A DNA stretch of 64,000 nucleotides from an uncultured cyanobacterium (GTDB lineage: Bacteria > Cyanobacteriota > Cyanobacteriia > Cyanobacteriales > Cyanobacteriaceae): the NCBI GenBank assembly GCA_963710605.1, contig CAVQBA010000004.1, positions 512,001 through 576,000 of the forward strand, in the 5' to 3' direction. Under the pieces are notes generated by a model, which searched no databases, had not been told where the DNA came from, and saw only the letters and a list, made by a program, of their open reading frames with translations. This document shows, one piece after another, positions 12,206 through 53,380 of this stretch. The translations under genes and the position numbers were made by a program. Every line of letters starts with the position of its first letter. The first letter of the stretch is position 1.

Positions 12206-12492
12206 TAGCGAATAGTCATTACCAGATTTGAAGTCAAATATTTTTTTAATTTGTTTATCCCTTTTAATTGAGCAGGGCTGATTCATTGTAAAATTTTGTA
12301 ACTTATACAACGTCAGAAATATAATAGTAAAAACACAATGTAACCACTCTCAATCAATCGTATTGTAGTAATAGCTTCTAGCTATTTTCTTCTTCCTTTG
12401 AATGTAACAGCTTTGCCTTAATTGAAGAGAAATGCAGATAAGTAAAAACGTGCTAATAAAAATACCAAGAGCGATTACCATAAGTTTTTTTT

Positions 12493-12582
12493 ACTCCCCT
12501 CTCCTGCGAGGAGCGGTGAGACCCCGCAACAACGGTAAGTTGCAAGGGAACGCTCACCAAGACAGAGGGGTTGGGGGTGAGG
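12493..12582. repeat. REP-like palindrome (CCCCTCTC...GAGGGGTTGGGGGTGAGG) interrupted by a second hairpin element
   Basis: Outer CCCCTCT/AGAGGGG, inner GGTGAG/CTCACC and GCAAC/GTTGC inverted pairs. Confidence 0.6.
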
Positions 12583-12629
12583 TAAAATCAAGATGAGGCT
12601 GGTACTTTTTTTCATGGCAATGTCCTAGT

Positions 12630-13583: not shown

Positions 13584-13738
13584 AATGCTCGATTTTTTGG
13601 ATAAACCAATTTTTAATATAGTTTAAAATAACACGATCGTGTAGTGCTTTATTAAGCCGTCATTATTGTCGTTGTCATAAAAGGTTGACTGGTTTAAAAC
13701 TAATCGCTATATCTTTTGATTACATCTTCTATTTATAC

Positions 13739-14728
13739 CTAACCACCAATTTGAGACATTGTTTTTCGGTATTGATTATTTTGCGTACCAGAGTCTCTTT
13801 CTTTAAAATTTATTTCGGGTTTAATTAATAATAAATCAGCTACTTTTTCTTTAACAACTTCTAAATCTTCTCCATTTCTTAACGCTGTTTTCAAATCAAT
13901 TTGTCCTGTTTCATTTAACAAACAAGGACGTAACCAACCATCAGCAGATAAACGGACTCGATTACATCGATCGCAAAAACATTCAGACATTTGCGAGATA
14001 AAGCCTAACGTCCCTTTAGCCGAAGGAATTTTAAAAACATCAGCAGGACCGTTACCTGTAATAAAACTCTCTTCTAGACCCCATTTAGCCTTAATTGAAG
14101 AGCGAATATCCGCCGAGTCTATCCATGCTTTCTCACCAAAAAGATTTGCATTACCAATGGGCATAAATTCAATGAAACGAATATGCCAATTACGATCGAT
14201 TGTTAGACGGGCTAAATCCAAAATTTCACCATCGTTAACCCCTGGAATTATTACTACATTTAGCTTTAAGGGATTAAAACCAACTTGATAAGCCTTTTGA
14301 ATTCCATCCCATGTTTTTTGCCAACGACTTTTGCCATGATTACCAATAATACGATCGAAAGTTTCAGCTTGAAGCGAATCTAAACTAATATTAATACGAC
14401 GTAATCCAGCCTCAAACAAATCAGTAGCTTTATCAGCTAGTAAATAAGCATTAGTAGTCAACGACAAATCTTGGGTTTGCGGAAAACTACTGATTTCGGT
14501 GACAATATCGACTAAATCAGGACGTAACAAAGGTTCACCCCCCGTTAAGCGAAACTTGCTAAATCCGAGAGGAATAAATACTTTTTTAATCAGAGTTAGT
14601 AATTCCGTTTTTGAAAGTATTTCCGAAGATAAAAGATAACTTAATTCTTCTGTTTCAGGCATACAATACTGACAACGAAAATTACATTTATCTATCAAAC
14701 TAATCCTTAAATAGTCAACTTTATTCAC
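13739..14728 (-). CDS. moaA: GTP 3',8-cyclase
   Basis: [19 protein letters not shown] radical SAM motif, [15 protein letters not shown]-terminus. Confidence 0.97.
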
Positions 14729-14896
14729 AAAATAAAAAATAACCTAACTAAATGTTTTTTTGAATCTAGAATAAAATAGAGAATTATAATTCTATTATGT
14801 ATCACTATGTTAGACTAATATCTAATTTACTGATAGTTTCAAATAAAAATTAATTCTCAATTCTCACCGAATAATTGCTTCTAGCAAGAATTCATC

Positions 14897-15268
14897 TCAA
14901 TTCTCAATTTTCAAACTGTGTTCTTGTAAAACTTCTAAACGAATGTATTCTAGAGTTTTTTCATGAGTTGCCGCTAAATCTATGGGGGTTGCAAATCCTG
15001 CATCTAAAGCCTCTTTCCAACGAGAAACGCACAGACACCATTTATCACCCGGTTTTAAACCTGGAAAATTGTACATCGGCATTGGAGTAGTTAAATCGTT
15101 GCCTCTATTCTTACTAAACGCAAGAAATTCAGCCGTCATCGTCGCACAAACCAAATGTAAACCCCTATCTTGAGCGCCTGTATCACAACAACCATTACGA
15201 TAAAAACCAGTCATTGGAGATGTACAACAAGTTTCTAACGGATTACCTTCAACATTTTTTGCCATCAT
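14897..15268 (-). CDS. DUF2237 family protein
   Basis: NVEGNPLETC, TGFYRNGCC, GLKPGDKWCLC. Confidence 0.9.
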   Translation of the reverse strand: MMAKNVEGNPLETCCTSPMTGFYRNGCCDTGAQDRGLHLVCATMTAEFLAFSKNRGNDLTTPMPMYNFPGLKPGDKWCLCVSRWKEALDAGFATPIDLAATHEKTLEYIRLEVLQEHSLKIEN

Positions 15269-15290
15269 TATTTTTGTTACTTCGATCGAA

Positions 15291-15914
15291 CTATTCTTTA
15301 TTATGCCAAAATTTTAAGTCTTCAGGTCGATCGATGTCTTTTAATATAGGTAAATAATCTATTTTATAACCAAGTTGTCGAGCGATCGACATAGTACGAG
15401 CAAAAACTGTATCTGTACCCCAATCAATCCCCATAAACAAAGATTTATCTAACTGCGTTAATCCTAATAAATAATAACCACCGTCATCCGCACCACCAAT
15501 AACTAAATCGTGAGTATTTAGAGAAACAAAAGCTTGATGTAAAATTTCCGCTGATAAACTAGGGCAGTCTATACCGATAATGACGACTTGTTGGCAATTG
15601 TTAGTAAAACGATCGGTAAAAGCATTATACATTTTATCACCTAAATCACCATCAGATTGAATTTGATAATGATATTTATTACCCAACCATTTTTGCATCA
15701 AATCTAAATTTCCACCATTAAAAAAGATATTTATTTCTACTGCTAAATATTCTTCTAGTTTAGTTACAGTATTCAGAGTATGCTCAGTCATTTCCTTTTG
15801 GAAATCAGCCGCTTTTTGAGCCCCGATAGCAGGAATTAACCTCGTTTTAGTTTTACCTTTTTCAGGATAACGAGTAAATATTATTAATGATTTTTGGCGA
15901 GATAAATTAGACAC
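15291..15914 (-). CDS. DUF2064/TIGR04282 family glycosyltransferase-like protein
   Basis: FTRYPEKGKTKTRL, GDLGDKM, IGIDCP, DGGYYLLG, DIDRPED. Confidence 0.88.
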   Translation of the reverse strand: MSNLSRQKSLIIFTRYPEKGKTKTRLIPAIGAQKAADFQKEMTEHTLNTVTKLEEYLAVEINIFFNGGNLDLMQKWLGNKYHYQIQSDGDLGDKMYNAFTDRFTNNCQQVVIIGIDCPSLSAEILHQAFVSLNTHDLVIGGADDGGYYLLGLTQLDKSLFMGIDWGTDTVFARTMSIARQLGYKIDYLPILKDIDRPEDLKFWHNKE

Positions 15915-16174
15915 AAATAAAATTTATAATTGAGAATTTAAAAACAGTGAATTAGCTATCAGTTATTATAATCATTTCGATTAAGATTGAAACAGTGTTA
16001 ATAATACTTAAAACATGAGTCATTACCCCTTCTGGGAAATAAACTACAAGGCTAATAGCAGAACGTTTAATAAATTAAACTCAAATTTTAACCCAAAAAT
16101 TGTCTCATTACTATTTGAAATAACTATAACTGTTGGCTGTCAAATATCAACTTTCAACTCTTAACTCTTAACTT

Positions 16175-17590
16175 TTAACTTTTAACTCTTAACGCTGTTT
16201 TTTTAACAAACTTATTAAAGATATTATTGTCTCTATTTTGTTGGAATATAAATTCCATTTTTTGTTTGATTACATTTAAGTTAATCGCATTAGAATTAGA
16301 AGTATCAGTTACTTGATAATATTCAATTAAACTTAAACCACAAATACGAGTTAAATAAGCGGCACTAACTCCTTGCATTAAACCACCAGCGACAAAAGTA
16401 AAAGCATTAGTTTTTAACACATTAGCGACGGCTTGAGTTGAGATTTCGACTATGCCTAATTGAAGCATTAATTTACCTAAAGCGATCGATACTTCTTGTG
16501 CTTGACTAATTGATAAAGGTTGCTGATAAATTTTACCCAAATCAATAATCATTTGCGTATTAATCGCCGCAGTTGCCAACAAATCAAGACTAGCAACAGG
16601 ATTAGCAAAAGTAGCCGTCGCCGACATCAATTGATACTTATCCATTACAGATAATGATTTTACCTTTCTTATTTGATTAAGTATTTCTTTGATTTGTCTT
16701 TCTAAATCTAGTGCTTGACGATAAGCAGTTGAAAGAATTAAATTTTCTTGCTGAGGTTGTATTTTGTTTTGATAAATATTAATTAGTTGTTCGTAATTTA
16801 TTGGTGTAATTTCTTCAGATTCTTGATAATTAAAATTATCTTGATATTTAATTACTTTTACTTTTTGAGTTTGAGTGGTTATTTGAACTATTTCTTCTTC
16901 TTTATCAATAATTTCTTGTAAGCTATTATTAATATTTTGCCAAATTAATTTCTTTTCTTCTGCTAAACTAAATTCACAATCATCAAATAAAACTAAGATT
17001 CTTTGTTGGCTATTTTTAATTTGTTTAATTTTATTTTTGTCTGAATCCGTTAAATCTCCTTGAATTACAAACAAAACTAAATCACGATCGAGTAATAACT
17101 TTTTGTTAACACTTTTTTCTATCTGATTATCTATCTTTTCAACTTGAGTATCAGCAAATTTTTGCTCAAAGGATCTAGATAAATTCAGGCTATTATTTTT
17201 TTTATTAAGAATTCCTATATTTAAATTTTGCCGTTTACTATTAGTCGTAATATCAGCTAAATTTTGCTTAAATAAACCATAATCTTGAGTAGAGTATTTT
17301 GAGTTGTCTGAAGATTTTGCTTCTTTAATTACAGTATTAATTAGATTATCTAACTTAGCAATTTTTTGATTGAAATCTTCGATCGTGATCTGCTTTATTT
17401 TGGATGAAATAGGACTTTTATTTTTCTTTATTTTACCTAAGATGGCAAATATTCCACCGCCAAAAATAATTCCTAAAGTAGTAATATTACTAATGTCACC
17501 TAAATTATTGGTAATACTTTGCCCTAACCAAAGCATAAAAGAAAGACTAACACCAGCAACTAAAATGGGTTTTTTGATTACTATACTCAC
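16175..17590 (-). CDS. YcjF/DUF697 family protein (degenerate GTPase-like N-terminus)
   Basis: ANPVASLDLLATAAIN, GGLMQGVSAAYLTRI. Confidence 0.75.
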   Translation of the reverse strand: MSIVIKKPILVAGVSLSFMLWLGQSITNNLGDISNITTLGIIFGGGIFAILGKIKKNKSPISSKIKQITIEDFNQKIAKLDNLINTVIKEAKSSDNSKYSTQDYGLFKQNLADITTNSKRQNLNIGILNKKNNSLNLSRSFEQKFADTQVEKIDNQIEKSVNKKLLLDRDLVLFVIQGDLTDSDKNKIKQIKNSQQRILVLFDDCEFSLAEEKKLIWQNINNSLQEIIDKEEEIVQITTQTQKVKVIKYQDNFNYQESEEITPINYEQLINIYQNKIQPQQENLILSTAYRQALDLERQIKEILNQIRKVKSLSVMDKYQLMSATATFANPVASLDLLATAAINTQMIIDLGKIYQQPLSISQAQEVSIALGKLMLQLGIVEISTQAVANVLKTNAFTFVAGGLMQGVSAAYLTRICGLSLIEYYQVTDTSNSNAINLNVIKQKMEFIFQQNRDNNIFNKFVKKTALRVKS

Positions 17591-18601: not shown

Positions 18602-18673
18602 GGGCGATTAGCTCAGTGGTAGAGCGCCTGCCTTACAAGCAGGACGTCACTGGTTCAAATCCAGTATCGCCCA
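18602..18673 (+). tRNA. trnV: tRNA-Val(UAC)
   Basis: GGGCGAT/ATCGCCC acceptor stem, D-arm AGCTCAGTGGTAGAGC, anticodon stem CCTGC/GCAGG with loop CTTACAA, GGTTCAAAT T-loop; CCA not encoded. Confidence 0.97.
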
Positions 18674-19601: not shown

Positions 19602-20093
19602 ATGAAAGCTAGAGAAATTATTCAAATTATTATTTTTATTCTGATAGGTTTAGCATTTATGTTTGGACTACAACCTTATTTATTTGATCAAAGAATACTA
19701 TTTGGAGTAGTAAGGAGTGTCACCTATAGTGAATGGATTGAGCAATATACCCTAGCCGCCGCAATTATCTTCGGTATTTCTGTTATTTTCACCATAATTT
19801 GGTGTGTGTTATTGTTAAAAAACCAAGATGGTAGTTACAGTACATGGAAAGCAGTTTGGTATGTTGGTTTATTTGTCTTAACCCTAATTGTGATTGGCAC
19901 AGTTTATATCAACAATCAAGATGACAATGGCGAATTGATTAGAGAAACTTTTATGCCGATGACACTCTGGCTTTTATTTGATTCATTATTTTTGCTTTAT
20001 TGGCTACCCACAGTAACTAGTACGCCCGGATTGTTAAAGAAAAAAGCAGTACCCGGAGCAATTTTAATTAATGATTTAATTGGCAGAAATTGA
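19602..20093 (+). CDS. Four-TM membrane protein, first gene of tubulin/actin-like locus
   Basis: Four hydrophobic segments; 33 bp before the tubulin-like gene. Confidence 0.85.
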   Translation: MKAREIIQIIIFILIGLAFMFGLQPYLFDQRILFGVVRSVTYSEWIEQYTLAAAIIFGISVIFTIIWCVLLLKNQDGSYSTWKAVWYVGLFVLTLIVIGTVYINNQDDNGELIRETFMPMTLWLLFDSLFLLYWLPTVTSTPGLLKKKAVPGAILINDLIGRN

Positions 20094-20126
20094 GCGATAA
20101 TTTTAATACTCAGGAGAAGAATTAAT

Positions 20127-21624
20127 ATGGCTTTTTATGTAGTCGGGATAGGTGGCACAGGTGCAAAATGTATTGAGGCAATTATTCAACTAGCTTCTGT
20201 GGGTTTGTTTCCCACTAATAAGCTTAAAGTAATGTTTGTTGATGCTGATGAAACTAATGGTAACTTACAAAGAACACAGACTAGTTTAGGTATTTATCAA
20301 AAATGTCATCAATTACTCAGCGGTAAACATGATGAATGTGATTGGATGACAACTAATATTGAATCTTACTCAGTTTGGTCTCCTTTTGGTAATAAAAATA
20401 CGGATAAAAAACTTGGTTCTTTTTTTGGTTACAATACTTTAAAACAACAAAACCCAGCTTTAGCTAGCTTATTTGATGTTTTATACACTGAAGATGAACG
20501 AAAAGTATCTTTAGAAGTCGGTTTTAGAGGTCGTCCTGCGATCGGTTCTGGTATAATGACTCAGATTGATTCTCGATCGTTTAGAAGAAGAACCATGGCG
20601 TAGTTTCATCAACGAAATTGTCAACAATTCTAGTAGCGGTGGTGAAACCAAAGTATTGCTTTGTGGTTCAATTTTTGGTGGTACAGGTGCATCAGGCTTA
20701 CCCACGATCGGTAGATTAATTGCGAATAAGTTAGAAAAAGAAGGTGTTAGAGAGAAAGTTAAATTAGGTTGTATCTTCGCATTACCTTACTTTAATTTTC
20801 CGAAAGGCTCAGCTAATGAACAAGTTTATGCAAGTTCAGATTTATTTTTACTTAACACCGAAGCCGCTCTTAGGTATTATCGAGAGCAAGCTCAACAATT
20901 TGATGCTAAATATTTAATCGGGAATCAAACCTTTGAAAAACTAGGCGAATTCAGCATTGGGAAAGATACCCAAATTAATCGCCCTCACTTTGTTGAGTTT
21001 TATGCAGCCTTAGCCGCCCGTAACTTTTTTTGTGAGCAACCTGAAGAAGCTGTACACGTTATCAGTCGTCATCAGACAGGTTTACTCCGATGGGATGATA
21101 TACCGAATAGTAATGAAGTCAAAAGCAAATTAGTCAATGCCACTCGTTTTGCTTTTATTTGGTTAGCTGATTTTCAGTTTCAATTACAACTAGGTAAAAA
21201 TCAAGGTATAGGTGAATTAAACGGGTTAGGTTGGTTTGATAAATTTTTTCAAGGAAAAGCTCTATTTAGGAAAACCAGAACACATTTACCTGACTTGAGT
21301 GAAGCTCAACAACAAGAAGCGATTAAAACGATCGATAATTGGTGTCAAGACTACTTACGCTGGCTAAGTGATATTCATATTTGTGATAGCGAAAAAATCG
21401 AGTTATTTAAAGCCCGTGAGCATTTTCTTAATGGTAGAGGATTGAAACCCGAAAACTTCGCCGATTTGTTATTTGACGAATCTCGTACTAAAGATGATTT
21501 AACACAAGATAACCTTGTCAAACTCAAAAATACAATTTCAGAATTGGATACAACTAAATTTGGCGAACCAAATCAGGGAGTAGCAGGATTAGCTAAAGCA
21601 GTCTATGTTTGTTGCAAATTATAA
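20127..21624 (+). pseudogene. Divergent tubulin/FtsZ-like GTPase (Tubulin_2-type), split by +1 frameshift near 20571 (~498 aa if repaired)
   Basis: VVGIGGTGAK, FVDAD, GFRGRPAIG in ORF 20127-20603; tubulin-signature loop GSIFGGTGASG and LPYF in ORF 20566-21624; AGGAG SD at 20112. Confidence 0.85.
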
Positions 21625-21632
21625 ACCGTTCA

Positions 21633-21666
21633 AGAATTTAGAATTTAGAATTTAGAATTTAGAATT
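21633..21666. repeat. AGAATTT heptamer repeat
   Basis: 4 full units plus one partial. Confidence 0.9.
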
Positions 21667-21672
21667 AATACC

Positions 21673-21777
21673 TATTCCCCATTCCCCATTCCCCATTCCC
21701 TATTCCCTATTCCCCATTCCCTATTCCCTATTCCCCATTCCCTATTCCCCATTCCCTATTCCCTATTCCCTATTCCC
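21673..21777. repeat. STRR-like (T/C)ATTCCC x15
   Basis: 15 contiguous units ending 7 nt before ATG 21785. Confidence 0.95.
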
Positions 21778-21784
21778 TAAAACT

Positions 21785-24700
21785 ATGGCAGATTTAATCT
21801 TATCCAAACTAAAAGACGACACCAATATTACTAAAGGGCAACCAGCACAATGGGAAGCCCGAAGTGATAAAGCATTTAGAGACGTAGCCGATAGTCTTGA
21901 TTATCAAGCCCCCGGTGTGATCAAAAATGTTAGTTCAGTACCGACAATGTGGGCTCGCCCTCTGATTACTGAAATGGCTTTATATGATCAAAATCACCCG
22001 ATTCATGAGGCGATGGTAGCTCAATGGCGAGGAATGTTAGCTGTTATTGCATTAGCAGAGATAGAAGGATTTGATCTCCAAGTTCAACTAATCGACTTAA
22101 GCACTCAACGTTATCAACCCTTTGGTGAAGCACTTTATCAACTTATTCCCGAACCAATCAATGCCCTTTATACCAGAGAAGGTAAAAACCCGTGGGAAGA
22201 AGTCTATGTTTTTGTCTGGCAAGGTAAACCAGTAGGTATGACCAGCCCTAGTACTCTTGTCTGTCCATCCGAAGAAGGAAAATGGACAGGATTACGTTGG
22301 TGGCAAAATGGTATGATTCAAAGCCCCGAACCATTTTTGAACGAAGAATCAAAAGAACTACTTTGGCGATGGTTAGAAAATATTCAAAATAATCTTACTA
22401 CTTATAATGGCTCTTCTGTAGCTGTTAATAAAATGATTGGTTTGATTGTTCAATTTAGAACCGATTTAGCAATTGAGAATTCCGCACCTGCCCCTTTAAA
22501 TTTAAGTACTAATCCTAACTTTTTTGGTGAGCCAATCAATCGAGGTGCATTAGTTTTACTTAATAACCCCGTGCGAATACCGCCTCAACCTTCAAACCTT
22601 AGAGTAATCCCTAGTGCAGTTAAAACTAGTGTTAAACCCCTAATTATTATTGACGAACAAATAGCTGATTTTTGGGGGCAACCTAAACAAAATATTTGGG
22701 TACATCAAGATAAAACTTTGGCTTCATTAAATATTGAAGATTTAAAAAACGGTAGGTTAGTTTGGGATGATGTTAACTGGATTACTTCTGCTGAATTATT
22801 TCTTGAAGAATTATATTTTATTGATTTAGATGATGCTTTACCTGGTGCTATCGTACCTCAATCAAATATTCCCCTTACTTTTAACAGTGAAAAAGTTACG
22901 CCTTTAATTCCCCTTAATCCCATCTTGTTAGACTATTTCACCCCAGAAGACTTGGTTAGTCATATTGAAATTGAACCATTTAACAATATTAATGGGCAGG
23001 GGTTACGACTAATTCTCAATTTGCCCTTATCAGGTATAGCCAATCAGAAACAATTTCAAGCTTATCGTCTGCAAAAAGAATATATTTTACATGAAGAAAA
23101 CGCTTTTAAATATTTACCTGTTTTAACTTTATGGCCGAATTTTCGATCGACTAACTGGCAACAATATTATACATTTTATTACGATGGTGATTATGGTGAT
23201 GAAACCTTCCGTGTTTTTGTACCTAATCAGGAAGTACGTCAATTCAAAGCCCCTGATGGTACAGGCTCGTATCAACTAGCTACAATGAACCAAATGCCTA
23301 GTCATGTAGTCTGTAAGGATAGTTACTACAAAGATATCGGTTTAATTCTGTTACCGACACTACCAGAAATAAATTCTCGTGGTAAGTGGAATGTAGGGGT
23401 TGATTTTGGTACTTCTTTTACTAATGTTTATGTCAAGGGCGAAAATACAGGTGATTTTCCTTTAGAGATGAATAAAGAATTACAATTGAATATTACCGAA
23501 AGCCCTATCCAGACTCGTTTACCTGCTTTACTTGAAAGTTTTGTTCCTGAAAAGTTTTTACCTTCAGAAGAGCCTTTACCTCTATCTACAGTATTAACTA
23601 CTAAAAACGGTAATGTTGATGATGGAGAATTACAAGCGATTCTTGATGGACGTATGTATGTACCAGATCCAACTGAATTTGATCCGAATAAACAATGGAT
23701 AAAGTTAGATTTAAAATGGTCAAATCTGAAATATTCTAAAGCCTTTTTACGTCATTTGTGTTTACATATTTCGGCTTTAGCCACTCAAGCGGGGATGAAT
23801 AGTATTGACTGGTGTATTTCTTATCCTAGTGCTTTTGCTTATGTCGATCGACTTACATTTCATCGTAATTGGCAAGAAATCGGTGAAGAATTAGCACCAA
23901 AGACTGGTATAAGTTATTCTTGCCCTGACATTGATGATACTCAACGTTTTTGTACTGAGAGTGTGGCTTTAGCTCAATATTTTAATGATAAAGAAAAACA
24001 TCCTTTAGTTTTAAATACTTGTATTGATATGGGTGGTGGCACATCGGATGTATCTATTTGGGAAAATCGTCGTATTGTTTATCAATGTTCGGTTTTATTT
24101 GCAGGTAGAAATATTTTCTCCGAAATTTTAGCCCTTAATCCTCCTTATGCTCAAAAATTAATGGCGGAATTTAGAATCAATAAAGATTGGACAGATTTGG
24201 GTGAAGTTTCGATCATGACTAATATTGATGTAGCCTTAAGACATTATGCAGAAGAATGGTTAGCTCAACAACGAGTTTATAAAAATGATGATACTTATTT
24301 CCAACGTTTAGTTACTCTAACCGCTTTAGGTGTAGCTGGTTTATATTATTATATTGGTCTAATTTTAAAAGTACTTCATACTGAAGGTAAATATAGTAAA
24401 GCCCAAATTACACCTGTTTATATTGGTGGTAATGCGTCTCGTTTTTTACATTGGCTTTCACCAACTGGTAAATACGATCAAAATTCAGAGTTTAATCAAT
24501 TGTTGAGTTTGATGTTAAGTAAGGCTTCTGGTTTTGAAGATAGTCAGGAAAAAACTCGTCTTAGCACTCGCCCTAAACATGAAGTCGCTTGTGGTTTGGT
24601 TTTAAGTAATACTCAATTAGTGGGAATGACAGAAAATAGCGATTGAGATCCTATTGCAGGAGAGAATTATTATGTAGAATATTATGATGATGATAATGAC

Positions 24701-25120
24701 ATTGAATATAAAGAAGAAAAAAGTTCTCATTCTCGTCTCCATTTTCAAGGTAACATAACTGATTTCAAAATAGATAAGTTAGATAATCTCGAAAAATTTT
24801 TATATGAGTTTAATGCAGGAATAAAAACTCTTAAAATTCAAAGTATCAAACCTCTAGCAAAATCAGATTACAAATTACAAAAACCTCAAGATAAAGATAA
24901 AAATCAAGATAAGGATAATTATAATCTTGAGAAGGACGAAACTACGACTAAAGACAAAAATAGTGAGCTTTGGAAAGATGTAAAATACCATCTTGAAAAT
25001 GAGTTATTAGATGTAAGAGGAGATGCCACTAAACTCGGTGAAAAAACTCCTTTTATTATGGGTTTGAAATCTCTTTTACATACTTTGGGTAAACGTTGGG
25101 CTGATTCTTACAAAGAATAA
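21785..25120 (+). pseudogene. Large protein with unknown N-terminal domain and actin/Hsp70-fold ATPase domain; in-frame TGA at 24644-24646 (953 aa, or 1111 aa with readthrough/repair)
   Basis: Phosphate-1 VGVDFGTSFT, SYPSAF, TESVA, phosphate-2 IDMGGGTSD, FAGR, adenosine YIGGNAS; frame stays open 157 codons past the TGA to TAA 25118-25120. Confidence 0.85.
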
Positions 25121-25121
25121 A

Positions 25122-25168
25122 TTAGAATTCGGAATTCGGAATTCGGAATTCCGAATTTGGAATTCTAA
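25122..25168. repeat. GAATTCG heptamer repeats forming an inverted repeat
   Basis: TTAGAATTC...GAATTCTAA ends with internal GGAATTC units, directly after TAA 25120. Confidence 0.7.
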
Positions 25169-25253
25169 CTAAAGAAAATTAAAAATAAGAAATATTAATT
25201 CTCAATTCTCCACTTGTACTGAGCGTTAGTCGAAGTATTCTCAATTCATAAAG

Positions 25254-25976
25254 ATGTCTGTTTCTCAAACTAAAAAATGTCCTATTTGTGATACGCCTTA
25301 TACTCAAAGTCAAAAGCGATGTAGTCAATGTAGTTGGGATTTGACATTGTATCACGATGGTTTTTTGTCGAACGAGCAATCATTGAAAGTTCATATTTCA
25401 GCTCGAAAAATTTATAGTTATCTACAAAAATATCGTGAAATGGTTAAACAAATGCAACAAAAAATAAAATTGTCTCAAAAAAAAGAAGATGATTTACATG
25501 ATGAAAACGATCGATTAAAGCAAGAATTAGAGGAATCAAAACTATTACCATTACAAATATATGAACTTGAATTACAAATTAATAAGTTACAAACACAAAT
25601 TAAACAACTAGAGTCAGAAAAAAGAGAAAATCAGATTGAAGTTAATCAAAGTTTGGAACAATATGTAATAAATCAAGATAATCGAAATACTAGTTTTGTG
25701 TCTAAAAAAGGAATTCAAGTAACACCGACTAAAAAAAGTTTAGAAGATATTTATTTGAATAAAGCAGATGAAATCGTTTTTGAGGTATCGAATCAAAATG
25801 ATTATTGGATAGTAGAATTAGAATCAACAGTTTATTGTTTATTACCAAATAAAAATTTAGATATTAAACGTAACTTGAAAGCGATTAGACATTTTTTTGA
25901 ATTAGTTGATTATCAAGATAATACAACTTGGGAAGTGGTTAAATTAGCTTTAGTTGAAAAAATAAATATCGATTGA
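25254..25976 (+). CDS. Zn-ribbon + coiled coil + locus-specific C-terminal domain (paralogue 1); homologous frame extends past TGA to 26012
   Basis: CPIC-x10-CSQCSWDL, heptad-rich middle, DYWIV..LLPN; *WKFKTQGILQF follows the TGA. Confidence 0.85.
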   Translation: MSVSQTKKCPICDTPYTQSQKRCSQCSWDLTLYHDGFLSNEQSLKVHISARKIYSYLQKYREMVKQMQQKIKLSQKKEDDLHDENDRLKQELEESKLLPLQIYELELQINKLQTQIKQLESEKRENQIEVNQSLEQYVINQDNRNTSFVSKKGIQVTPTKKSLEDIYLNKADEIVFEVSNQNDYWIVELESTVYCLLPNKNLDIKRNLKAIRHFFELVDYQDNTTWEVVKLALVEKINID

Positions 25977-26051
25977 TGGAAGTTTAAAACACAAGGTATT
26001 TTACAGTTTTGATTATTACTAAATAACAATAAGTTATCTTACTATGAAATT

Positions 26052-26786
26052 ATGTCTTCTACTCACACTAAACAATGTCCAATTTGTGATTCAACTTGTT
26101 TATCGACAGAAACAGTTTGTACAAAATGTGGCTGGGATTTAACAATCAATCATGATTGTCATCTAGATGAAAAAATATTGCAGAAAATTCAAACAGTAAC
26201 TCGTAATGTTTATCAAAAATTCAGAAGATTAACGAAACGTTATCGCCAAGAAAGAAATGAATTAAAAACTCAAATGGATGAAATTAAAGATTTACCAAAA
26301 CAAATGTTTCAATTGCAACTACATGCTTCTAAATTAAAAAAAGAAAACGATCGATTGAAACAAGAAATAGAAAAATTACAAGTTGACAAGTTGAAGACGC
26401 AAATTGAACAATTTGACGATAAAAAAAGTAAAGACAAAATGAAGGTTGAAGAAAATATAGAGCAACATTCGATCGTTCAAGATTATCAAAATACTGATTT
26501 TTTAATGAAAAATGGTATTAAAGTAACGCCTACAAAAAAAACCTTAAAAGATATTTACTTAAATACAGTTAAGGAGATTATTTTCTATCCTGCTAAAGGT
26601 AATGATTATTGGATAGTGGAATTAGAATCAGGAATTTATGGTTTACTACCAAATGAAAATCTTGATATTAAGCGTAACTTAAAAGCGATTAGATATTTTT
26701 TTGAATTGATTGATTATGATGATAATTCTACTTCTACTTGTAAAGTGATTAAATTAGCTCAAGTTGAGAAAATAAATATCGATTGA
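26052..26786 (+). CDS. Zn-ribbon + coiled coil + locus-specific domain (paralogue 2); homologous frame extends past TGA to 26822
   Basis: CPIC-x10-CTKCGWDL; same 3' end as paralogue 1. Confidence 0.85.
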   Translation: MSSTHTKQCPICDSTCLSTETVCTKCGWDLTINHDCHLDEKILQKIQTVTRNVYQKFRRLTKRYRQERNELKTQMDEIKDLPKQMFQLQLHASKLKKENDRLKQEIEKLQVDKLKTQIEQFDDKKSKDKMKVEENIEQHSIVQDYQNTDFLMKNGIKVTPTKKTLKDIYLNTVKEIIFYPAKGNDYWIVELESGIYGLLPNENLDIKRNLKAIRYFFELIDYDDNSTSTCKVIKLAQVEKINID

Positions 26787-26861
26787 TGGAAGTTTAAAAC
26801 ACAAGGTATTTTACAGTTTTGATCATTACTAAACAACACTAAGTTATTCTACTATGAAATT

Positions 26862-27791
26862 ATGTCTTCTACTATTTACCCTAAAAAATGTCCAATTTGT
26901 GATTCAACTTGTTTATCGACAGAAACAGTTTGTACAAAATGTGGCTGGGATTTAACTTTGAATCATGATTATCATCATCTAGATGAAAAAATATTGCAGA
27001 AAACTCAAACAGCAACTCGTATTGTTTATCAAAAACTAAAAAAACTAACGAGCCGTTATCGCCAAGAAAGAGATGAATTAAGAACTCAAATGGATGAAAT
27101 AAAAGATTTACCACAACAAGTATTTGAATTACAATTACGGATTTCAGAGTTAGAAAAAGAAATAGAATCATCGTCTTTACAACAAAAAGATATTGAGCAA
27201 TTAAAGCAAGAAATATTATTAGAATTAGAAAATAAATTTAGAGATATTATTGAAAGACAAAATTTACAATCCACAGCACCTTCATCTAATGTTTTAAAAG
27301 AAAATTTCAAACAAGAAGAAAACGATAATATTCGAGCGACTGAAGATATTGATAACACTGAAAACAAACAAGAAAAAAACGATCGACATGATAATCAGCA
27401 ACCACAAATAAATAATAATGAAGAGAGTTATGTTATTAGAGAGTATTCTCAAAATACTAAAGTTTTCTCTCAATATACTTATAAAGTTACACTAACAAAA
27501 AAATGTTTAGAAAATATTTATATTAATAGAGCAAATGAAATTATATTTGAAATTTCTAATCAAAGTGATTATTGGGTATTTAATCACAATACAATACATT
27601 GCTATTTGTTACCAAAATTAGATTTTAAAATTAATATTAATATTAAAGCAGTAAGAACAATCTTTGAGTTACAACAATATAAAGAAAATAATACTTCTAA
27701 GCAATTTTTAGTTACCAAACCTGCTCGTGTTCAAGAAATAGACAATCAAAAGTGGAAATTAATCGAGCGAGGTATTCTCAGTTTTAACTAA
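26862..27791 (+). CDS. Zn-ribbon + coiled coil + locus-specific domain (paralogue 3, intact)
   Basis: CPIC..CTKCGWDL; DYWVF..YLLP..KPARV..WKLIERGILSF. Confidence 0.87.
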   Translation: MSSTIYPKKCPICDSTCLSTETVCTKCGWDLTLNHDYHHLDEKILQKTQTATRIVYQKLKKLTSRYRQERDELRTQMDEIKDLPQQVFELQLRISELEKEIESSSLQQKDIEQLKQEILLELENKFRDIIERQNLQSTAPSSNVLKENFKQEENDNIRATEDIDNTENKQEKNDRHDNQQPQINNNEESYVIREYSQNTKVFSQYTYKVTLTKKCLENIYINRANEIIFEISNQSDYWVFNHNTIHCYLLPKLDFKININIKAVRTIFELQQYKENNTSKQFLVTKPARVQEIDNQKWKLIERGILSFN

Positions 27792-27833
27792 TTTATTATT
27801 AATATTATTATGAAAAATAAAGTACAAAATAAT

Positions 27834-27860
27834 CCCCCTCTATCCCCCTTTCAAAGGGGG
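27834..27860. repeat. REP-like hairpin CCCCCTTT-C-AAAGGGGG
   Basis: Inverted repeat; related element at 41288-41318. Confidence 0.6.
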
Positions 27861-27954
27861 AAGGTTAAGGATACTTCACTTTTGTTTGAGGGGAGACTTA
27901 CAAATAATGAATGTACATCATAATGATGAAAAATTCTATATTATTAATATTATT

Positions 27955-29454
27955 ATGAAAAATAAAGTTATTCAATTAATTATTATCGGCTTTTTTTTAC
28001 CTATATTTTTAAATAGTTGTAATCAAAATAATCAGCAAACTAACCAAACTAAAAGTGAGGAAGAAAAAATAGCTGAAGTAGTTACTATCGAAGAAAAATG
28101 GAGTGATGAAAAACAACAATTATACGATACTCTTAAACAAGAATATATTGCTTTTAATCAATATTTACAGCCTGAAAGCGATTTACTAAATCTGTTTGAA
28201 GAGCAAAGTAAAACTTCACCAACTAATATTGAGTTTAATCCTTCAAATCCAGATACAAATGAAATAGTTAATTTTACCGAGCAATACCAAAAGTTTTTTG
28301 ATTCTATTAGTGAATTAGAACAAGAATTTCCTGTAGAGCAACAAAATGTAGTTGAAAATATAGCTACGCAACTGAAGCAGTCTTCTGAAGATAATATTAG
28401 TTTAGCATCGATTGAATCTTTATTAGATGACCAGCAACTAACTCAAACAGAAATTTGTGAAAATATACAACTACCTTTACAAATAATAACTCAACAAAAT
28501 GACCCTGATTGTGGTATTTTTGGTCAGCAAACTTATACCGAATTAACTAATTTTTTAATACAAGAAAATCAAGAATTAGAATTTAAAATTAATCAACTAG
28601 ATACGATTGTAACACAACTTAAAAACTCCGAGCAAGAATCTTTAAATTCTAATATTAATCAAAATAAAGATAAAACAAATATTACTCAAAGTAAAGTAAA
28701 AACTGATAATTCGTTACCTATAGTTTTGCTTACTATTACTATTATTTTTAGTGTATTAAGTTTAATTGCTAGTATCTTCAACTATTTAGCAATTAAAAAA
28801 TTAAAAACAAGCAATCAACAAGCTAATGAAAATATAGATGAAAATAACAAAACAGAAATTGAACAATTAAAGTCTCAGATTGACAGCTATCTAGAAAAAA
28901 TAGCAATATTTGAAAGTAATACTCAAAAAATTCAAAATACTTTAGAAAATCAATCTATCACAATAAGAGAATTAGAAAATAAAAATCAACCTAAAAATAT
29001 AAACCCTTCTCGTATTAATAACTTACCGCCACAAAAATTATCTTCTAATTCCGAGGTATCAACAAATACTCATTTAGCACAAATTTATCAGCAAAATCCT
29101 AATAACCTACTACAAAATGGAACAAAAGTGGGTATGACAAAACAAACCACTAACAAAATTTTAGGTGGTGTATGGGATAATATTTTTTTAGAAGAAAATA
29201 GACGTACAGGAGAATACATAATTGTTAATCGTAATAACAGCGATAATAACAAATGTTATCTGTTTTTAGATCCTCATTCAATGTTTAATCCTCAGACTTT
29301 GGGTACTATTCATAAATCAGGTTTATTTGTTTGTCATGGTAACTTAGCCCAAAGTAGAAAGGGAGGTGAAATTACCATCAATAAACCCGCAACCGTAAAC
29401 AAAACACAACAAGGCTGGATGTTGATAGAAGCAGGAGAAATTAGTTTACCTTAA
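27955..29454 (+). CDS. Predicted lipoprotein with internal TM, coiled coil and locus-specific C-terminal domain (paralogue 4)
   Basis: Start moved to ATG 27955: MKNKVIQLIIIGFFLPIFLNSC signal/lipobox; TM LPIVLLTITIIFSVLSLIASIF; ends KPATV..WMLIEAGEISL. Confidence 0.82.
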   Translation: MKNKVIQLIIIGFFLPIFLNSCNQNNQQTNQTKSEEEKIAEVVTIEEKWSDEKQQLYDTLKQEYIAFNQYLQPESDLLNLFEEQSKTSPTNIEFNPSNPDTNEIVNFTEQYQKFFDSISELEQEFPVEQQNVVENIATQLKQSSEDNISLASIESLLDDQQLTQTEICENIQLPLQIITQQNDPDCGIFGQQTYTELTNFLIQENQELEFKINQLDTIVTQLKNSEQESLNSNINQNKDKTNITQSKVKTDNSLPIVLLTITIIFSVLSLIASIFNYLAIKKLKTSNQQANENIDENNKTEIEQLKSQIDSYLEKIAIFESNTQKIQNTLENQSITIRELENKNQPKNINPSRINNLPPQKLSSNSEVSTNTHLAQIYQQNPNNLLQNGTKVGMTKQTTNKILGGVWDNIFLEENRRTGEYIIVNRNNSDNNKCYLFLDPHSMFNPQTLGTIHKSGLFVCHGNLAQSRKGGEITINKPATVNKTQQGWMLIEAGEISLP

Positions 29455-29577
29455 ATCGAATTAATTAATTATTGATAATTAATCTCTCATTATGTATTTA
29501 TCTTATAATTAGTCAAATAGTAATAATACTTAAAAAAATTAAAGTAAGTAAAATTTTTTTTGTTTGTAATTTAGATT

Positions 29578-30858
29578 ATGACGCAATCTTCTTATGATAA
29601 TGAATCTCAGCTAGAGCCTATTTATGATAAAATTCAACAACTAGATAAAAAGCTACAAAATTTAGAAAAATCTAGCCAGAAAGTAATCGTTACTGGAGGT
29701 AAGAAAAACTTTCAGCCAAAACCGCTATTCGTCAGCCAAGAAGAATTAATTAATTTATATAATTATTTACCAAATACATTGCTTGAGTATATTACTCCTG
29801 TTAATGTTACTGCTGATACCTACAGAGCAAAAACAAATAATAAAGTATATTTAGAATATAATTTGAATGGTTATTATTGGGTGATTTTAACTGAATCTGA
29901 ATCTCAAAAAGATTGTTGGTTAGTACCTAATGCCAATCGTAGAAATAATTTTCATCGTTTGCAAGACAAAATAAAATCTCTATTTATTATTCAAGGAAAT
30001 TTAGATAGTTATGATTATATTTTACAAAAACCAGCAAAAATAGAAATTTTTTCCAACGGTTTAAGATGGATTTTGATTAAGCAAGGTTGTTTACAAATAG
30101 GTAAAACTTCTCCTGCTGAGCAACTAATTAAAAAAATAGAAAATATTGAAAATAATAAAAACAAAGAAATACCAGAAATTATTATTATTAATAGTCAAAA
30201 CAAGATTAGTAAATTAAGTAATCAAATTAAAGAATATCAACAAAAAATTAATTCATTAGAAAATAATATTTATAAGCTTCAGCAAACTATAGAAAGTAAC
30301 TTATTAAGATTAAACAAATTAGAAAATCTAAATTTAAATCAAAATTACGACAATTGTTCATTATTACAACAATTAAAACAAGAAATATTATTAGAATTAG
30401 ATAATAAATTAAAAATAATTATTTCTCAACAAAATATTAATAGTTCTCAAGTAAAAAAAGAACATAATCATCAACTACAAATAAATAGTAAAGAAGAAAA
30501 AAAATTAATTAAATATTATTATTATAAAAGCGAAAAATTAGCTCACTATGGCTATAGAGTTACGTTAACTATAGAAAGTTTGGAAGATATTTACGCAAAT
30601 AGAGTAAATAAAATTATTTTTGAAAAATTTGCTCAAAGTAATTATTGTATATTTAAACTAAAGTCAGAAATTTACTATTTATTACCTGAATTTAATTTTA
30701 AAATTAGGACTAATATTAAAAGCCTAAAAACAATTTTTACAATTAAAAATTATAGAGATAACATTTCTAAACAATTTGAAGTTATTAAACCTGCCCATGT
30801 TAAAAAAATAAAATCTGACAAATGGGAATTAACAAAGCGAGGAATTCTCGAATTTTAA
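29578..30858 (+). CDS. Protein with two copies of the locus-specific domain separated by a coiled coil (paralogue 5)
   Basis: YYWVIL..WLVPN..KPAKI..WILIKQGCL and NYCIF..YLLP..KPAHV..WELTKRGILEF. Confidence 0.85.
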   Translation: MTQSSYDNESQLEPIYDKIQQLDKKLQNLEKSSQKVIVTGGKKNFQPKPLFVSQEELINLYNYLPNTLLEYITPVNVTADTYRAKTNNKVYLEYNLNGYYWVILTESESQKDCWLVPNANRRNNFHRLQDKIKSLFIIQGNLDSYDYILQKPAKIEIFSNGLRWILIKQGCLQIGKTSPAEQLIKKIENIENNKNKEIPEIIIINSQNKISKLSNQIKEYQQKINSLENNIYKLQQTIESNLLRLNKLENLNLNQNYDNCSLLQQLKQEILLELDNKLKIIISQQNINSSQVKKEHNHQLQINSKEEKKLIKYYYYKSEKLAHYGYRVTLTIESLEDIYANRVNKIIFEKFAQSNYCIFKLKSEIYYLLPEFNFKIRTNIKSLKTIFTIKNYRDNISKQFEVIKPAHVKKIKSDKWELTKRGILEF

Positions 30859-30946
30859 CTTAGAACGATCGCTTTTTGTCTTTACGATAAAAATAAAATT
30901 ATTAAATTAACTATTACTTATATTATCTCTATTTCTAATTTAGATT

Positions 30947-31999
30947 ATGACGCAATCTTCTTATGATAATGAATCTCAGCTAGAGCCTATTTATGATAAA
31001 ATTCAACAACTAGATAAAAAGCTACAAAATTTAGAAAAATCTAGCCAAAAAGTAATTGTTACGGGTGGTAAAAAAGACTTTCAGCCAAAACCGCTATTTG
31101 TTAGCCAAGAAGAATTAATTAATCTCTACAATTATTTACCGAATATATTACTCGAATATATTACGCCTGTTAGTATTACAGCAGATACTTACAGAGCAAA
31201 AACTAATAATAATATTTATTTGGAATATAACTTAAATGGTCACTATTGGGTGATTTTAACTGAATACGAATCTCATAAAAATTATTGGTTAGTACCTAAT
31301 GCCAATAGAAAAAATAATTTTCACCGTTTACAAGATAGAATAAAATCTTTATTTATTATTCAAGGAGATTTAAATAGTTATAATTATACGTTAGAAAAAC
31401 TAGCAGGAATTGAAATTTTAGCTGATGGTTTAAAATGGTATTTAATTGAAAAAGGTTATTTACAGATAGGCAAAACTTCTCCGATAGAACAACTTATTAA
31501 AAAGCTAGAAAAACTAAAAACTGAAAATGGTGAAATACCGCAAAATATTATTGGTTTAGTTGAATCTATTGATTTATATTATCAAAAAACTTTAAATATT
31601 GAAAAAGAACAAAAAGAGCTAACAAAAGCAGTAGTTAAAATAACTGATATAATAATTACTAATAATAATAAGTTAACTAAAACAACTAATAAACTAGAAC
31701 AAACTATTCATAAGTTAGAGAAAGAAGTTTATCAAACGATTGATCATAATCAACAACAAAATTTAGAAAATTTAGCAACTTTTGAACAAAACTTTGAACA
31801 AAAAATAAAAATAATTAGTACTAAAGTAAGCGAAAATTACCAAGAAAAACAAATATTAAGAGATGATTATGAAAAACTAAATAAAGATTTTAAACAACAA
31901 CAAAGAAAAGTTAAAAACATTAATAGTAATCTTGGTTGTCTTAATTTTTTACTCATCGTAGTAGTCTTAGTTTTATCAATAATTTTAATTAATATATAA
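30947..31999 (+). CDS. Locus-specific domain + coiled coil + C-terminal membrane anchor (paralogue 6)
   Basis: N-terminal ~185 aa closely similar to paralogue 5; ends FLLIVVVLVLSIILINI. Confidence 0.85.
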   Translation: MTQSSYDNESQLEPIYDKIQQLDKKLQNLEKSSQKVIVTGGKKDFQPKPLFVSQEELINLYNYLPNILLEYITPVSITADTYRAKTNNNIYLEYNLNGHYWVILTEYESHKNYWLVPNANRKNNFHRLQDRIKSLFIIQGDLNSYNYTLEKLAGIEILADGLKWYLIEKGYLQIGKTSPIEQLIKKLEKLKTENGEIPQNIIGLVESIDLYYQKTLNIEKEQKELTKAVVKITDIIITNNNKLTKTTNKLEQTIHKLEKEVYQTIDHNQQQNLENLATFEQNFEQKIKIISTKVSENYQEKQILRDDYEKLNKDFKQQQRKVKNINSNLGCLNFLLIVVVLVLSIILINI

Positions 32000-32289: not shown

Positions 32290-33042
32290 TTGTTATATCG
32301 TATTACCGTTAATCCTGAACAAGTACAAAATCAAATCATTAAGTTGCAATCTGAACAAGAACATTACCTGCGTCGTGTAGTGAGATTGAATAATGAAGAC
32401 AACTTCATTGCTATTGATGGTCGAGGTAACTGTTGGTTAGCCAAATTAACACCTAATCATGGTTGTATCGTACGATCGATCGATGAAAATAAAGAATTAC
32501 CTATCGCCGTAACCTTAATAGTCGCTTTACCTAAAGGTCAAGGCTTTGAAGAGATTATTCGGATGACAACAGAATTAGGTGTAACTCAAATACAACCCGT
32601 GATTAGCGATCGAACTATACTTAAACCTAATGCCAATAAACTAATACGTTGGCGTAAAATTGCCGCCGAAGCCGCCGAACAATCAGAAAGACAAATAATA
32701 CCTGATATTACTCCCGTTGTATCGGTAAAAGAAGCTTTTAGTGCGGCTAATAATTTAAATATACCTAAATATTTAGCTTTTGCTCGCAGTACTACCCCAC
32801 ATTTGCAACATATCTTAACAAAAGAACTAGAGCAATCAATACCACCCCAGATAATTATCGCTACAGGTTGCGAAGGCGGTTGGACAAACAAAGAAGTAGA
32901 ATTTGCGGTTAATAAATGTAATTTTGAACAAGTGTCTTTAGGAAAAAGAATATTAAGAGCTGTAACCGCTCCAGTTATGGTCATGTCCTTACTCTCAGCC
33001 ATGATTGATTCTCAAATTAACGACCATCATCAAAATTTTTAA
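32290..33042 (+). CDS. rsmE: 16S rRNA m3U1498 methyltransferase
   Basis: HYLRRVVRL, TELGV, EAAEQSER, EGGWT, LGKRILRAVTAP. Confidence 0.95.
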   Translation: MLYRITVNPEQVQNQIIKLQSEQEHYLRRVVRLNNEDNFIAIDGRGNCWLAKLTPNHGCIVRSIDENKELPIAVTLIVALPKGQGFEEIIRMTTELGVTQIQPVISDRTILKPNANKLIRWRKIAAEAAEQSERQIIPDITPVVSVKEAFSAANNLNIPKYLAFARSTTPHLQHILTKELEQSIPPQIIIATGCEGGWTNKEVEFAVNKCNFEQVSLGKRILRAVTAPVMVMSLLSAMIDSQINDHHQNF

Positions 33043-33149: not shown

Positions 33150-33656
33150 TTGAGTCAATCACTAGAAAATATTACTAAACTCGATACTCTGGCACAAGAA
33201 TTAGCCGCTATTCAGCAAACAGGAGCTAAAAAAATAGCCCTGCTAGGTTCTCGCCATGTGCCAATCACTCATCAATATTTAATCGAAATGATGAGTTATG
33301 CTCTTGTGTTAGGAGGTAACCGAGTAATTACCTCAGGTGCGGCGGGAACAAACTCCGCGGCGATAAGAGGTGCGATGCGAGCAGATCCTAATCTGCTTAC
33401 AGTCATACTACCTCAAAGTCTCGATCGTCAATCAAGAGAATCACAAGATCAATTAAAACAAGTTATTCATTTAGTTGAAAATCCAGACAACAACTATCTT
33501 TCCTTAGGAGAAGCAAGTGCAGTCTGTAACCGAGATATTATTTCTCGTTGTCAACAACTAATCTGTTTTGCCTTTCACGATAGTCATACATTGATGCAAA
33601 CTTGTAAAGAAGCTGATGAATTGAGTAAATTAGTAACCAAATTTTACTTTGATTAA
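33150..33656 (+). CDS. DprA/Smf-like (SLOG/Rossmann) conserved cyanobacterial protein
   Basis: IALLGSRH, ITSGAAGTN, CNRDIISRCQQLICF. Confidence 0.75.
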   Translation: MSQSLENITKLDTLAQELAAIQQTGAKKIALLGSRHVPITHQYLIEMMSYALVLGGNRVITSGAAGTNSAAIRGAMRADPNLLTVILPQSLDRQSRESQDQLKQVIHLVENPDNNYLSLGEASAVCNRDIISRCQQLICFAFHDSHTLMQTCKEADELSKLVTKFYFD

Positions 33657-51776: not shown

Positions 51777-51862
51777 TTGATAGTTGACAGTTGACAATTG
51801 ACAATTGACAATGAATAATTAACTTCTTACTCATTACTCATTACTCATTACTCATTACTCAT
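51777..51862. repeat. TTGACAR and TTACTCA heptamer arrays
   Basis: Two adjacent tandem arrays in the intergenic gap. Confidence 0.85.
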
Positions 51863-53378: not shown

Positions 53379-53380
53379 AT

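Follow-up and report, generated by a model that had tools for sequence, protein, structure and literature searches.

In a window of 64,000 nucleotides from an uncultured cyanobacterium of the family Cyanobacteriaceae (the whole stretch analyzed here, positions 512,001 to 576,000 of contig CAVQBA010000004.1 in assembly GCA_963710605.1), a cluster of nine genes, all on the + strand and built from ten open reading frames (ORFs), was found at 19602-31999, as had been claimed by a first-pass annotation of this DNA. The results showed that the cluster is a copy of a sporadic, conserved system of five components, namely a lipoprotein, a small transmembrane (TM) protein, a putative tubulin-like GTPase, a giant putative actin/Hsp70-type ATPase, and an ordered set of proteins sharing a domain of about 130 residues which we call X, and that the copy in the window is damaged and probably decaying. 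Gene content, gene order, co-occurrence, fusions, a patchy and in part plasmid-borne spread, and the lesions of the window's copy were all observed directly and are presented below, starting with the features of the cluster.

19602..20093, + strand: small membrane protein, 163 aa, first core gene (ORF and hydropathy scan)
20127..21624, + strand: Tubulin_2/FtsZl1-type GTPase gene with a +1 frameshift (two ORFs, motifs, orthologue alignment)
21652..21791, no strand: heptanucleotide tandem repeat (repeat family D3)
21785..25121, + strand: giant ATPase, about 1112 codons with an in-frame TGA (ASKHA-type motifs, orthologues)
25254..26012, + strand: class A X-domain protein, copy 1, premature TGA (local hidden Markov model, HMM)
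26052..26822, + strand: class A X-domain protein, copy 2, premature TGA (local HMM, identity to copy 1)
26862..27791, + strand: class A X-domain protein, copy 3, intact (local HMM; the first gene after the ATPase in relatives)
27886..29454, + strand: class B X-domain protein with TM segments and C-terminal X (local HMM, hydropathy)
29578..30858, + strand: class C X-domain protein with two X domains (local HMM)
30947..31999, + strand: class C X-domain protein with N-terminal X and TM anchor (local HMM, hydropathy)

The occurrence of the system was surveyed in one sample of 301 Cyanobacteriota genomes, which are interrelated, and the counts are descriptive, with no statistical test. The ATPase was found in 31 genomes, the GTPase in 30, and X and the lipoprotein in 32 each, so that about 10% of the sample carries the system. 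All 30 genomes with the GTPase have the ATPase, and among the 31 ATPase genomes the GTPase was present in 30, X in 29, and the lipoprotein in 30. The sole ATPase genome without the GTPase (G210) holds only a 367-aa ATPase fragment, those without X are G093 and G125, and the sole one without the lipoprotein (G128) is 73% complete. X only was recorded for G205, G233, and G274, and the lipoprotein only for G168, as a stop-filled remnant, and G233. Among 151 Gemmatimonadota genomes the system was found in one, a Longimicrobiales metagenome-assembled genome (MAG).

Gene order was compared across 37 loci whose ATPase ORF is full-length; these loci were picked by their ATPase match and test adjacency, not presence. 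The GTPase gene was directly upstream of the ATPase gene in 35 of them, with the X arrays downstream; the exceptions were L036, where the GTPase is on another contig, and L055. In 32 of the 37, a TM gene orthologue immediately precedes the GTPase gene (local HMM), and in L020 and L023 an unrelated-looking multi-TM ORF occupies the TM gene's position. The same order, lipoprotein followed by TM protein, GTPase, ATPase, and X array, recurs on chromosomes, on metagenome contigs, and on five cyanobacterial plasmids, two of them mobilizable, where the genes are annotated as hypothetical or 'tubulin-like'; intact plasmid-borne copies are carried by the culturable strains Gloeothece PCC 7822 and Picosynechococcus PCC 7003, 8807, and 73109. 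The TM-GTPase-ATPase triad was also found in the Longimicrobiales MAG (L020), whose GTPase is 31% identical (E 7e-38), and on a Prevotella replicon. The conserved two-NTPase pair proposed in the first-pass annotation was thus borne out, and the neighborhood survey that it had named as a check found the genes together in the 301 genomes and 37 loci. Downstream of the triad in L020 lie genes for a coiled-coil protein, an OmpA-family protein, and an SF1 helicase-RNase_H_2 fusion (11833-12783, 13737-17240).

The GTPase gene of the window is split into ORFs 20127-20603 and 20566-21624, which carry VVGIGGTGAK and GSIFGGTGASG. An intact orthologue of 499 aa (L014:14225-15724) cleared the PF13809 cut-off of 27 bits with a score of 31.2 (E 1.7e-7), while the C-terminal ORF of the window scored 16.9 bits, under the cut-off, and neither the N-terminal ORF nor a more distant orthologue in L013 gave a match to this family. 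In the T1 (GxGGTG) and T4 (GGTG[AS]G) loops, G10, G11, G13, G185-G188, A189, and G191 are invariant in 21 orthologues. On the score of the intact orthologue and these glycine-rich loops, the GTPase is predicted to be a member of the Tubulin_2/FtsZl1 family. In L013 (genome G027), an inserted gene for a Uma2-family endonuclease (13185-13745) separates the GTPase gene from the ATPase gene.

The ATPase ORF of the window (21785-24646, 953 aa) carries VGVDFGTSFTN, DMGGGTSD, and IGGNASR, and its orthologues are single unbroken ORFs of 1096-1105 aa. In the full frame of the window's gene, the phosphate-1, phosphate-2, and adenosine motifs fall at about residues 535-935, preceded by an N-terminal 'head' of about residues 1-330. 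The residues D540, G542, and T546, D747, G749, T752, and D754, and G880 are shared without exception by 21 diverse members. When the ATPase profile was compared with the PDB, it matched the actin-family entry 8r2n_A (E 3.6e-5), MreB (9.7e-4), and FtsA (1e-3) over only about 60 residues at phosphate-2; these motifs and this short match suggest an ATPase of ASKHA (actin/Hsp70/sugar-kinase) type. The curated cut-offs for MreB, FtsA, and Hsp70 were all missed (MreB_Mbl 17-21 bits against 27, FtsA 17-22 against 31.8), and the NCBIfam scores were 15.7 against 293 for MreB and 15.1 against 176 for FtsA, in agreement with the earlier statement that this is not the division FtsZ/FtsA pair or MreBCD. 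The family comprised 1384 representatives at E<=1e-3, with homologues also named from Nitrospirota and Acidobacteriota MAGs. In a degenerate actin-motif scan of genome contigs, relatives accounted for 3 of at least 600 stretches, and a metagenome-contig scan with the representative P0109 did not recover P0109's own contig. A heptanucleotide tandem repeat, CCCCATT/CCCTATT, fills the GTPase-ATPase spacer at 21652-21791 and enters the ATPase start codon, and a second heptanucleotide array, GGAATTC, lies just past the ATPase stop at 25121-25160, where a terminator-like hairpin is also scored on the minus strand.

The domain arrangement of the ATPase was further classified in the 150 best of the 1384 representatives, with the following results.

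Full-length ATPase: 102 of the best 150
GTPase-ATPase fusion (P0162, P0174; local HMM independent E-value (i-E) 1e-100 and 4e-112): 2 of the best 150
ATPase carrying X, which either replaces the head at the N-terminus or follows a full ATPase at the C-terminus: 5 of the best 150
No head, other N-terminal domain: 13 of the best 150
Headless or fragment: 19 of the best 150
N-terminal part only: 6 of the best 150
Other: 3 of the best 150

According to Pfam, the head is replaced by Peptidase_C14 in P0149 and P0170, by Pkinase in P0137 and P0151, and by TIR_2 in P0163, and Trypsin_2+VMAP-M1 is placed before a full ATPase in P0109; the N-termini of P0146, P0148, P0164, and P0168 matched no Pfam family. 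Paralogues of 976 and 1037 aa with X as the head were found in L011 and L015, and headless paralogues of about 730 aa, beginning near profile position 312, are located inside or next to X arrays (L026:12443-14641, L043:6513-8714). The N-terminus of the L055 ATPase has an HG...DCCHSG pattern, which may be caspase-like. The candidate presence of X hidden within the head itself was rejected (hhalign probability 0.1%). Strict co-inheritance, fixed order, and fusions argue for joint action of the GTPase and the ATPase and for a functional link between X and the latter.

Domain X was detected in all six genes downstream of the ATPase (25254-31999) with i-E values of 1e-30 to 1e-41 by a local iterated HMM, which was built partly from these six sequences and which also detects X in genomes outside its building set. 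The claim of six paralogues with one shared domain therefore stood with the profile, and needs it: BLASTP alone ties the 27886-29454 protein to the other five only via the coiled coil. Class A proteins consist of a Zn ribbon, a coiled coil, and a C-terminal X, which is complete in copy 3 at residues 179-308 (DZR_2 21.4 bits, under the cut-off). The class B protein has TM segments near residues 19 and 279 and X at 391-521, an architecture that holds the second array position in most loci. Among the class C proteins, that of 29578-30858 has X domains at 46-175 and 304-426 with a coiled coil between, and that of 30947-31999 has X at 46-175, a coiled coil, and a TM anchor at 330-348. X showed no consistent Pfam family in 34 members, no match to a Pfam model of an effector-associated domain (EAD), and no PDB match under E 0.7, and word-indexed searches returned the query itself only or 19 unnamed proteins.

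The number of X genes per surveyed locus was 1-6, and the order A, B, C after the ATPase gene recurs in most other loci, with A triplicated and C duplicated in the window. The N-terminal 203 aa of the 29578-30858 protein are 81% identical to the 30947-31999 protein, the latter gene being a recent duplicate of the 5' part of the former (87% nucleotide identity over 300 nt), and class A copies 1 and 2 share segments at 86-88% nucleotide identity. Mosaic stretches of 84-92% nucleotide identity among the array copies point to recent duplication and conversion. The array is also more AT-rich than the core (GC 0.19-0.31 in comparison to 0.30-0.39), and the accessory genes are 37-44% identical to their nearest relative, whereas the GTPase and the bulk of the ATPase reach 77-80%, corresponding to about twofold faster evolution. 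Of the "fast-shuffling AT-rich" accessory genes of the first-pass annotation, the speed and the composition were thus upheld, but free shuffling was not, given the fixed A, B, C order. As for the first core gene, described earlier as encoding a 4-TM protein, the hydropathy scan supported three strong hydrophobic segments, and the fourth is only possible.

The fifth component, a lipoprotein, measures about 440-520 aa. It has a lipobox Cys and the motif VDGSxSM...TD (DxSxS...TD), in which D60 and S64 are nearly invariant and T154 and D155 invariant. In 29 loci its gene adjoins the TM gene, in either divergent or co-directional orientation, and in relatives it forms a divergent pair with a two-X gene beside the TM gene. 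In the window's genome (G000) the lipoprotein gene is intact (506 aa) on another contig, C7:399837-401357, and a two-X gene lies at C4:800651-801739, 258 kb from the cluster; likewise, G003 has its core on one contig and its lipoprotein and two-X genes on another. A vWA identity was supported by neither a Pfam nor a PDB profile match, and the only similar entries were unnamed look-alike Atlas clusters. By its metal-site motif the lipoprotein is probably a vWA-like partner, and the first-pass annotation, which saw no vWA partner, would in that case have missed one that lies outside the window in this genome.

Four of the nine genes of the window are damaged, namely those of the GTPase, the ATPase, and class A copies 1 and 2. 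Compared with the L014 orthologue, the GTPase gene contains a single additional base near 20570, and the ATPase frame meets a TGA at 24644-24646 and then stays open for 158 codons to a TAA at 25119-25121. ORFs 25254-25976 and 26052-26786 both end at a TGA (25974-25976 and 26784-26786), losing about the last 12 residues of X with its last strand; the X match continues through the TGA, and the two tails are alike. Because three in-frame TGAs occur in one locus of a genome with 84.9% completeness and 33% GC, recoding of TGA was tested, and it was rejected: TGA is the stop codon of 258 of 1613 long ORFs, the sole tRNA-Trp is CCA with no UCA tRNA, and none of the three TGAs falls at a Trp position, the aligned residues being variable (K/I/F or K/Q). 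Genome-wide, 49 ORFs of at least 250 aa have 60 or more further in-frame codons after their stop (25 TAA, 16 TGA, 8 TAG), and the genome holds either many pseudogenes or assembly errors.

That the lesions are assembly errors in an intact and active locus, or that TGA is read through, appears improbable to us. In its favor, the two GTPase halves and the 158 post-TGA ATPase codons are lesion-free, with 57-80% identity to orthologues, and the assembly stays at 84.9% completeness despite its mere 7 contigs, a combination that frameshift-prone long-read assembly can cause. However, the frameshift lies outside a homopolymer, the displaced lipoprotein and two-X genes cannot be explained by base-calling errors, and the stop-codon, tRNA, and alignment evidence speaks against readthrough. 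The ATPase is truly split in G299 too and was flagged as broken in G093 and G210. The system in this genome is likely inactive, and its copy is probably a relic being lost. ARAGORN reported 39 tRNAs in this genome and no tRNA-Gln, and its weak tRNA-Pyl(cta) call at C4:820043-820134 (31.5% GC) was taken as spurious.

The cluster is flanked by tRNA-Val (18602-18673) on one side and rsmE (32290-33042) on the other, and the neighboring genes in the window encode MoaA, DUF697, RsmE, Thf1, and SerRS. The flanks share no synteny with the relatives compared, as the window's flanking genes were not beside the cluster in any of seven loci compared, from six other genomes (five of the same family and one of another family of the order). 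The tRNA gene, a tRNA-Val(UAC), is 930 bp upstream of the cluster; an island inserted at it was considered and rejected, since no 16-24-nt piece of the tRNA (with at most 1 mismatch) is repeated in the next 21 kb. Beyond rsmE, an ORF of 168 aa (33150-33656) gave a weak partial DprA match (DNA_processg_A, 21.8 bits against 29.6) and may be a truncated dprA, and two overlapping same-strand ORFs, 51855-53423 (522 aa) and 53381-55024 (547 aa), could be another frameshift-split gene.

The closest known relatives of the system are the operons centered on FtsZl1. According to Makarova and Koonin (2010, PMC2875224), FtsZl1 genes occur in operons with vWA, OmpA-like, and membrane proteins, a vWA partner being present in the majority; membrane remodeling was the favored function, FtsZl1 was reported to be without recognizable T6-H7 elements, which are needed for filaments, and a cyanobacterial FtsZl1 clade with vertical inheritance was noted. 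The present system resembles these operons in its predicted Tubulin_2 GTPase and its membrane proteins, with a constant DxSxS...TD lipoprotein here in comparison to the usual vWA protein there. The key differences are that the constant partner here is an ASKHA-type ATPase of about 1100 aa, while a P-loop GTPase or kinase is found there, and that neither an X array nor an actin-fold partner is mentioned in the examined passages of that paper, whose supplementary associated-family lists may overlap with the present families. The literature searched described no operon of a tubulin-like protein with a giant actin-fold ATPase, no X domain, and no such lipoprotein, with the same reservation for the 2010 supplementary lists. 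The pairing of a tubulin-like protein with a giant ASKHA ATPase, the X domain, and the lipoprotein appear to be new as far as these predicted families go, while Makarova and Koonin had already described the GTPase family together with its association with vWA and membrane proteins (PMC2875224). A match to a characterized system, which the first-pass annotation had proposed to look for, was sought in PADLOC, NCBIfam, and PHROGs and not found, except that the GTPase itself falls in Tubulin_2/FtsZl1.

The second group for comparison is the conflict systems of Kaur et al. (2020, PMC7159879), for which that paper proposes tubulin and HSP70 homologues as multimerizing parts. Like the GAP1-N2 DO-GTPase systems described there, the present system combines a constant NTPase core with variable, membrane-linked modules and with tubulin/HSP70 homologues, whereas tubulin and HSP70 are separate themes in that account and form one pair, sometimes one polypeptide, here. 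The same text states that DO-GTPase/GAP1 systems are 'nearly completely absent in cyanobacteria', and no P-loop GTPase or GAP1 was found in the Pfam results for the ORFs of the window locus, L014, and L013. X also resembles the EADs of that paper in that it is fused to the ATPase in L011, L015, and 5 of the best 150 representatives while other copies stand in adjacent genes or elsewhere; unlike the EADs as described there, the surveyed X proteins carry Zn ribbons, coiled coils, and TM segments only, not enzymes. One family member, P0109 with its Trypsin_2+VMAP-M1 modules, recalls the VMAP ternary systems, but a MoxR or vWA-MoxR pair is absent here.

SrfB (PF07520, srfABC) resembles the ATPase in its size of about 1000 aa, in its DIGGGTTD...AGDDI phosphate-2 motif, and in being encoded after a gene of about 460 aa, and it was the nearest named cluster in a protein-language-model search (0.88, lead only). 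Homology was rejected: HMMER gave no match to PF07520, hhalign of the ATPase alignment A2 against four SrfB sequences aligned 43 columns around phosphate-2 with a probability of 79%, and SrfA showed no similarity to the GTPase. The filaments of FtsZ/FtsA, MreB, TubZ, and ParM share with the system the same two NTPase superfamilies, and they are membrane-associated with nucleotide-dependent assembly; the ATPase here differs in being three times larger, with a patchy distribution and other gene partners.

As to function, we tentatively favor, with a confidence somewhat short of even, a nucleoside triphosphate (NTP)-gated, envelope-associated conflict system that is a variant of the FtsZl1-centered operons. 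The lipoprotein and the TM protein would form an envelope module, on which the GTPase and the ATPase would be seated as a cytoplasmic two-NTPase core, and the X domains would dock the Zn-ribbon/coiled-coil and membrane-anchored proteins onto this core. An envelope or cytoplasmic trigger, with phage infection as the likeliest candidate, would lead to nucleotide-dependent assembly of the core, which would gather effectors; in relatives these may be the caspase, TIR, kinase, or trypsin modules on ATPase paralogues, and in minimal loci like that of the window they would probably be the membrane-inserted X proteins. The outcome would be growth arrest or cell death. The binding, assembly, trigger, and outcome are what we infer, and since the core proteins lack X in most loci, including the window, homotypic coupling alone cannot explain the docking. 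The swappable head, the patchy plasmid-linked spread, the repeated decay, and the fast accessory genes fit the grammar of NTP-dependent conflict systems as given by Kaur et al. (2020). A bolder form of this proposal, in which a tubulin-superfamily GTPase and an actin-superfamily ATPase would be one obligate, sometimes fused machine wired to the envelope through the lipoprotein and the TM protein, whose assembly would activate an undescribed immune or cell-death system that is widespread in cyanobacteria, with paralogues delivering caspase, TIR, or kinase effectors and X as the docking adaptor, we regard as doubtful.

Several results weigh against a conflict role. The conserved class order of the X array is at least as compatible with structural subunits as with diversifying sensors, if not more so. 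The window's own locus has no enzymatic effector and its flanks no recognizable defense gene; of the effector-fused paralogues, the sole one seen in context, L055 with its candidate caspase-like N-terminus, is without GTPase, TM protein, and X on its 16-kb contig. In the searches made, PADLOC-DB 2.0 gave no match for the TM protein, the GTPase, or the ATPase, and for the coiled coils of the X proteins only low matches that we regard as noise (LmuB, JetC, LeoA; E 1e-5 to 9e-3); NCBIfam and PHROGs matched nothing in the cluster, and no phage record matched the ATPase. The defining DO-GTPase and GAP1 components, as given by Kaur et al. (2020), are absent at the locus. Motifs and a profile match over 60 residues are the basis of the actin assignment, and both the tubulin and the actin folds are sequence-based predictions. 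Finally, some genera have the system in every sampled genome (g14 5/5, g4 2/2), which is compatible with a housekeeping accessory role. The suggestion of a conflict system in the first-pass annotation was thus backed by the caspase, TIR, kinase, and trypsin-VMAP-M1 N-termini of paralogues but not by PADLOC, and its overall interpretation was in part upheld, the breakage in four genes and the dispersal of components not having been weighed in it.

The main rival is an accessory cytoskeletal or membrane-remodeling machine with no conflict role, in which filaments of the tubulin-like and actin-like NTPases, anchored through the TM protein, the lipoprotein, and the X proteins, would shape or repair the envelope, make vesicles, or organize a membrane domain, and we consider it rather unlikely, though worth serious attention. 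It agrees with the membrane remodeling favored for FtsZl1 operons in PMC2875224, with the OmpA-family gene downstream in the Longimicrobiales locus, with the membrane components in every surveyed locus and the fixed X class order, and with the fully positive genera and the lack of any defense-family match. However, the reported lack of recognizable T6-H7 elements in FtsZl1 is hard to reconcile with filaments. Only 31 of the 301 genomes contain the system, five of its records are plasmids, the ATPase is broken or flagged as broken in four genomes, and the caspase, TIR, kinase, and trypsin-VMAP modules of paralogues typify cell-death and immunity proteins rather than cytoskeletal ones. Another explanation is a segregation or maintenance module of mobile DNA that was later captured by chromosomes. 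TubZ, which is tubulin-like, and ParM, which is actin-like, are plasmid partition NTPases, and the five plasmid copies would suit such a role; but most copies are chromosomal, a separate ParA is already encoded on the Gloeothece plasmid, neither an adaptor for centromere binding nor a matching phage record was seen, and a lipoprotein, membrane proteins, and an 1100-aa ATPase are unlike any known partition system. We give this explanation very little credence.

For this genome the main finding is a system being lost, and the broader interest lies in the family. Tubulin-like and actin-like NTPases are usually studied as separate cytoskeletal systems, and here they form a strictly co-inherited pair. 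If the pair does assemble together, it would be a new kind of composite NTPase machine, and if it gates caspase, TIR, or kinase effectors, it would represent a cytoskeleton-based branch of bacterial immunity and provide a testable role for FtsZl1, a family without a function since 2010. The intact plasmid copies in culturable strains make the question directly testable.

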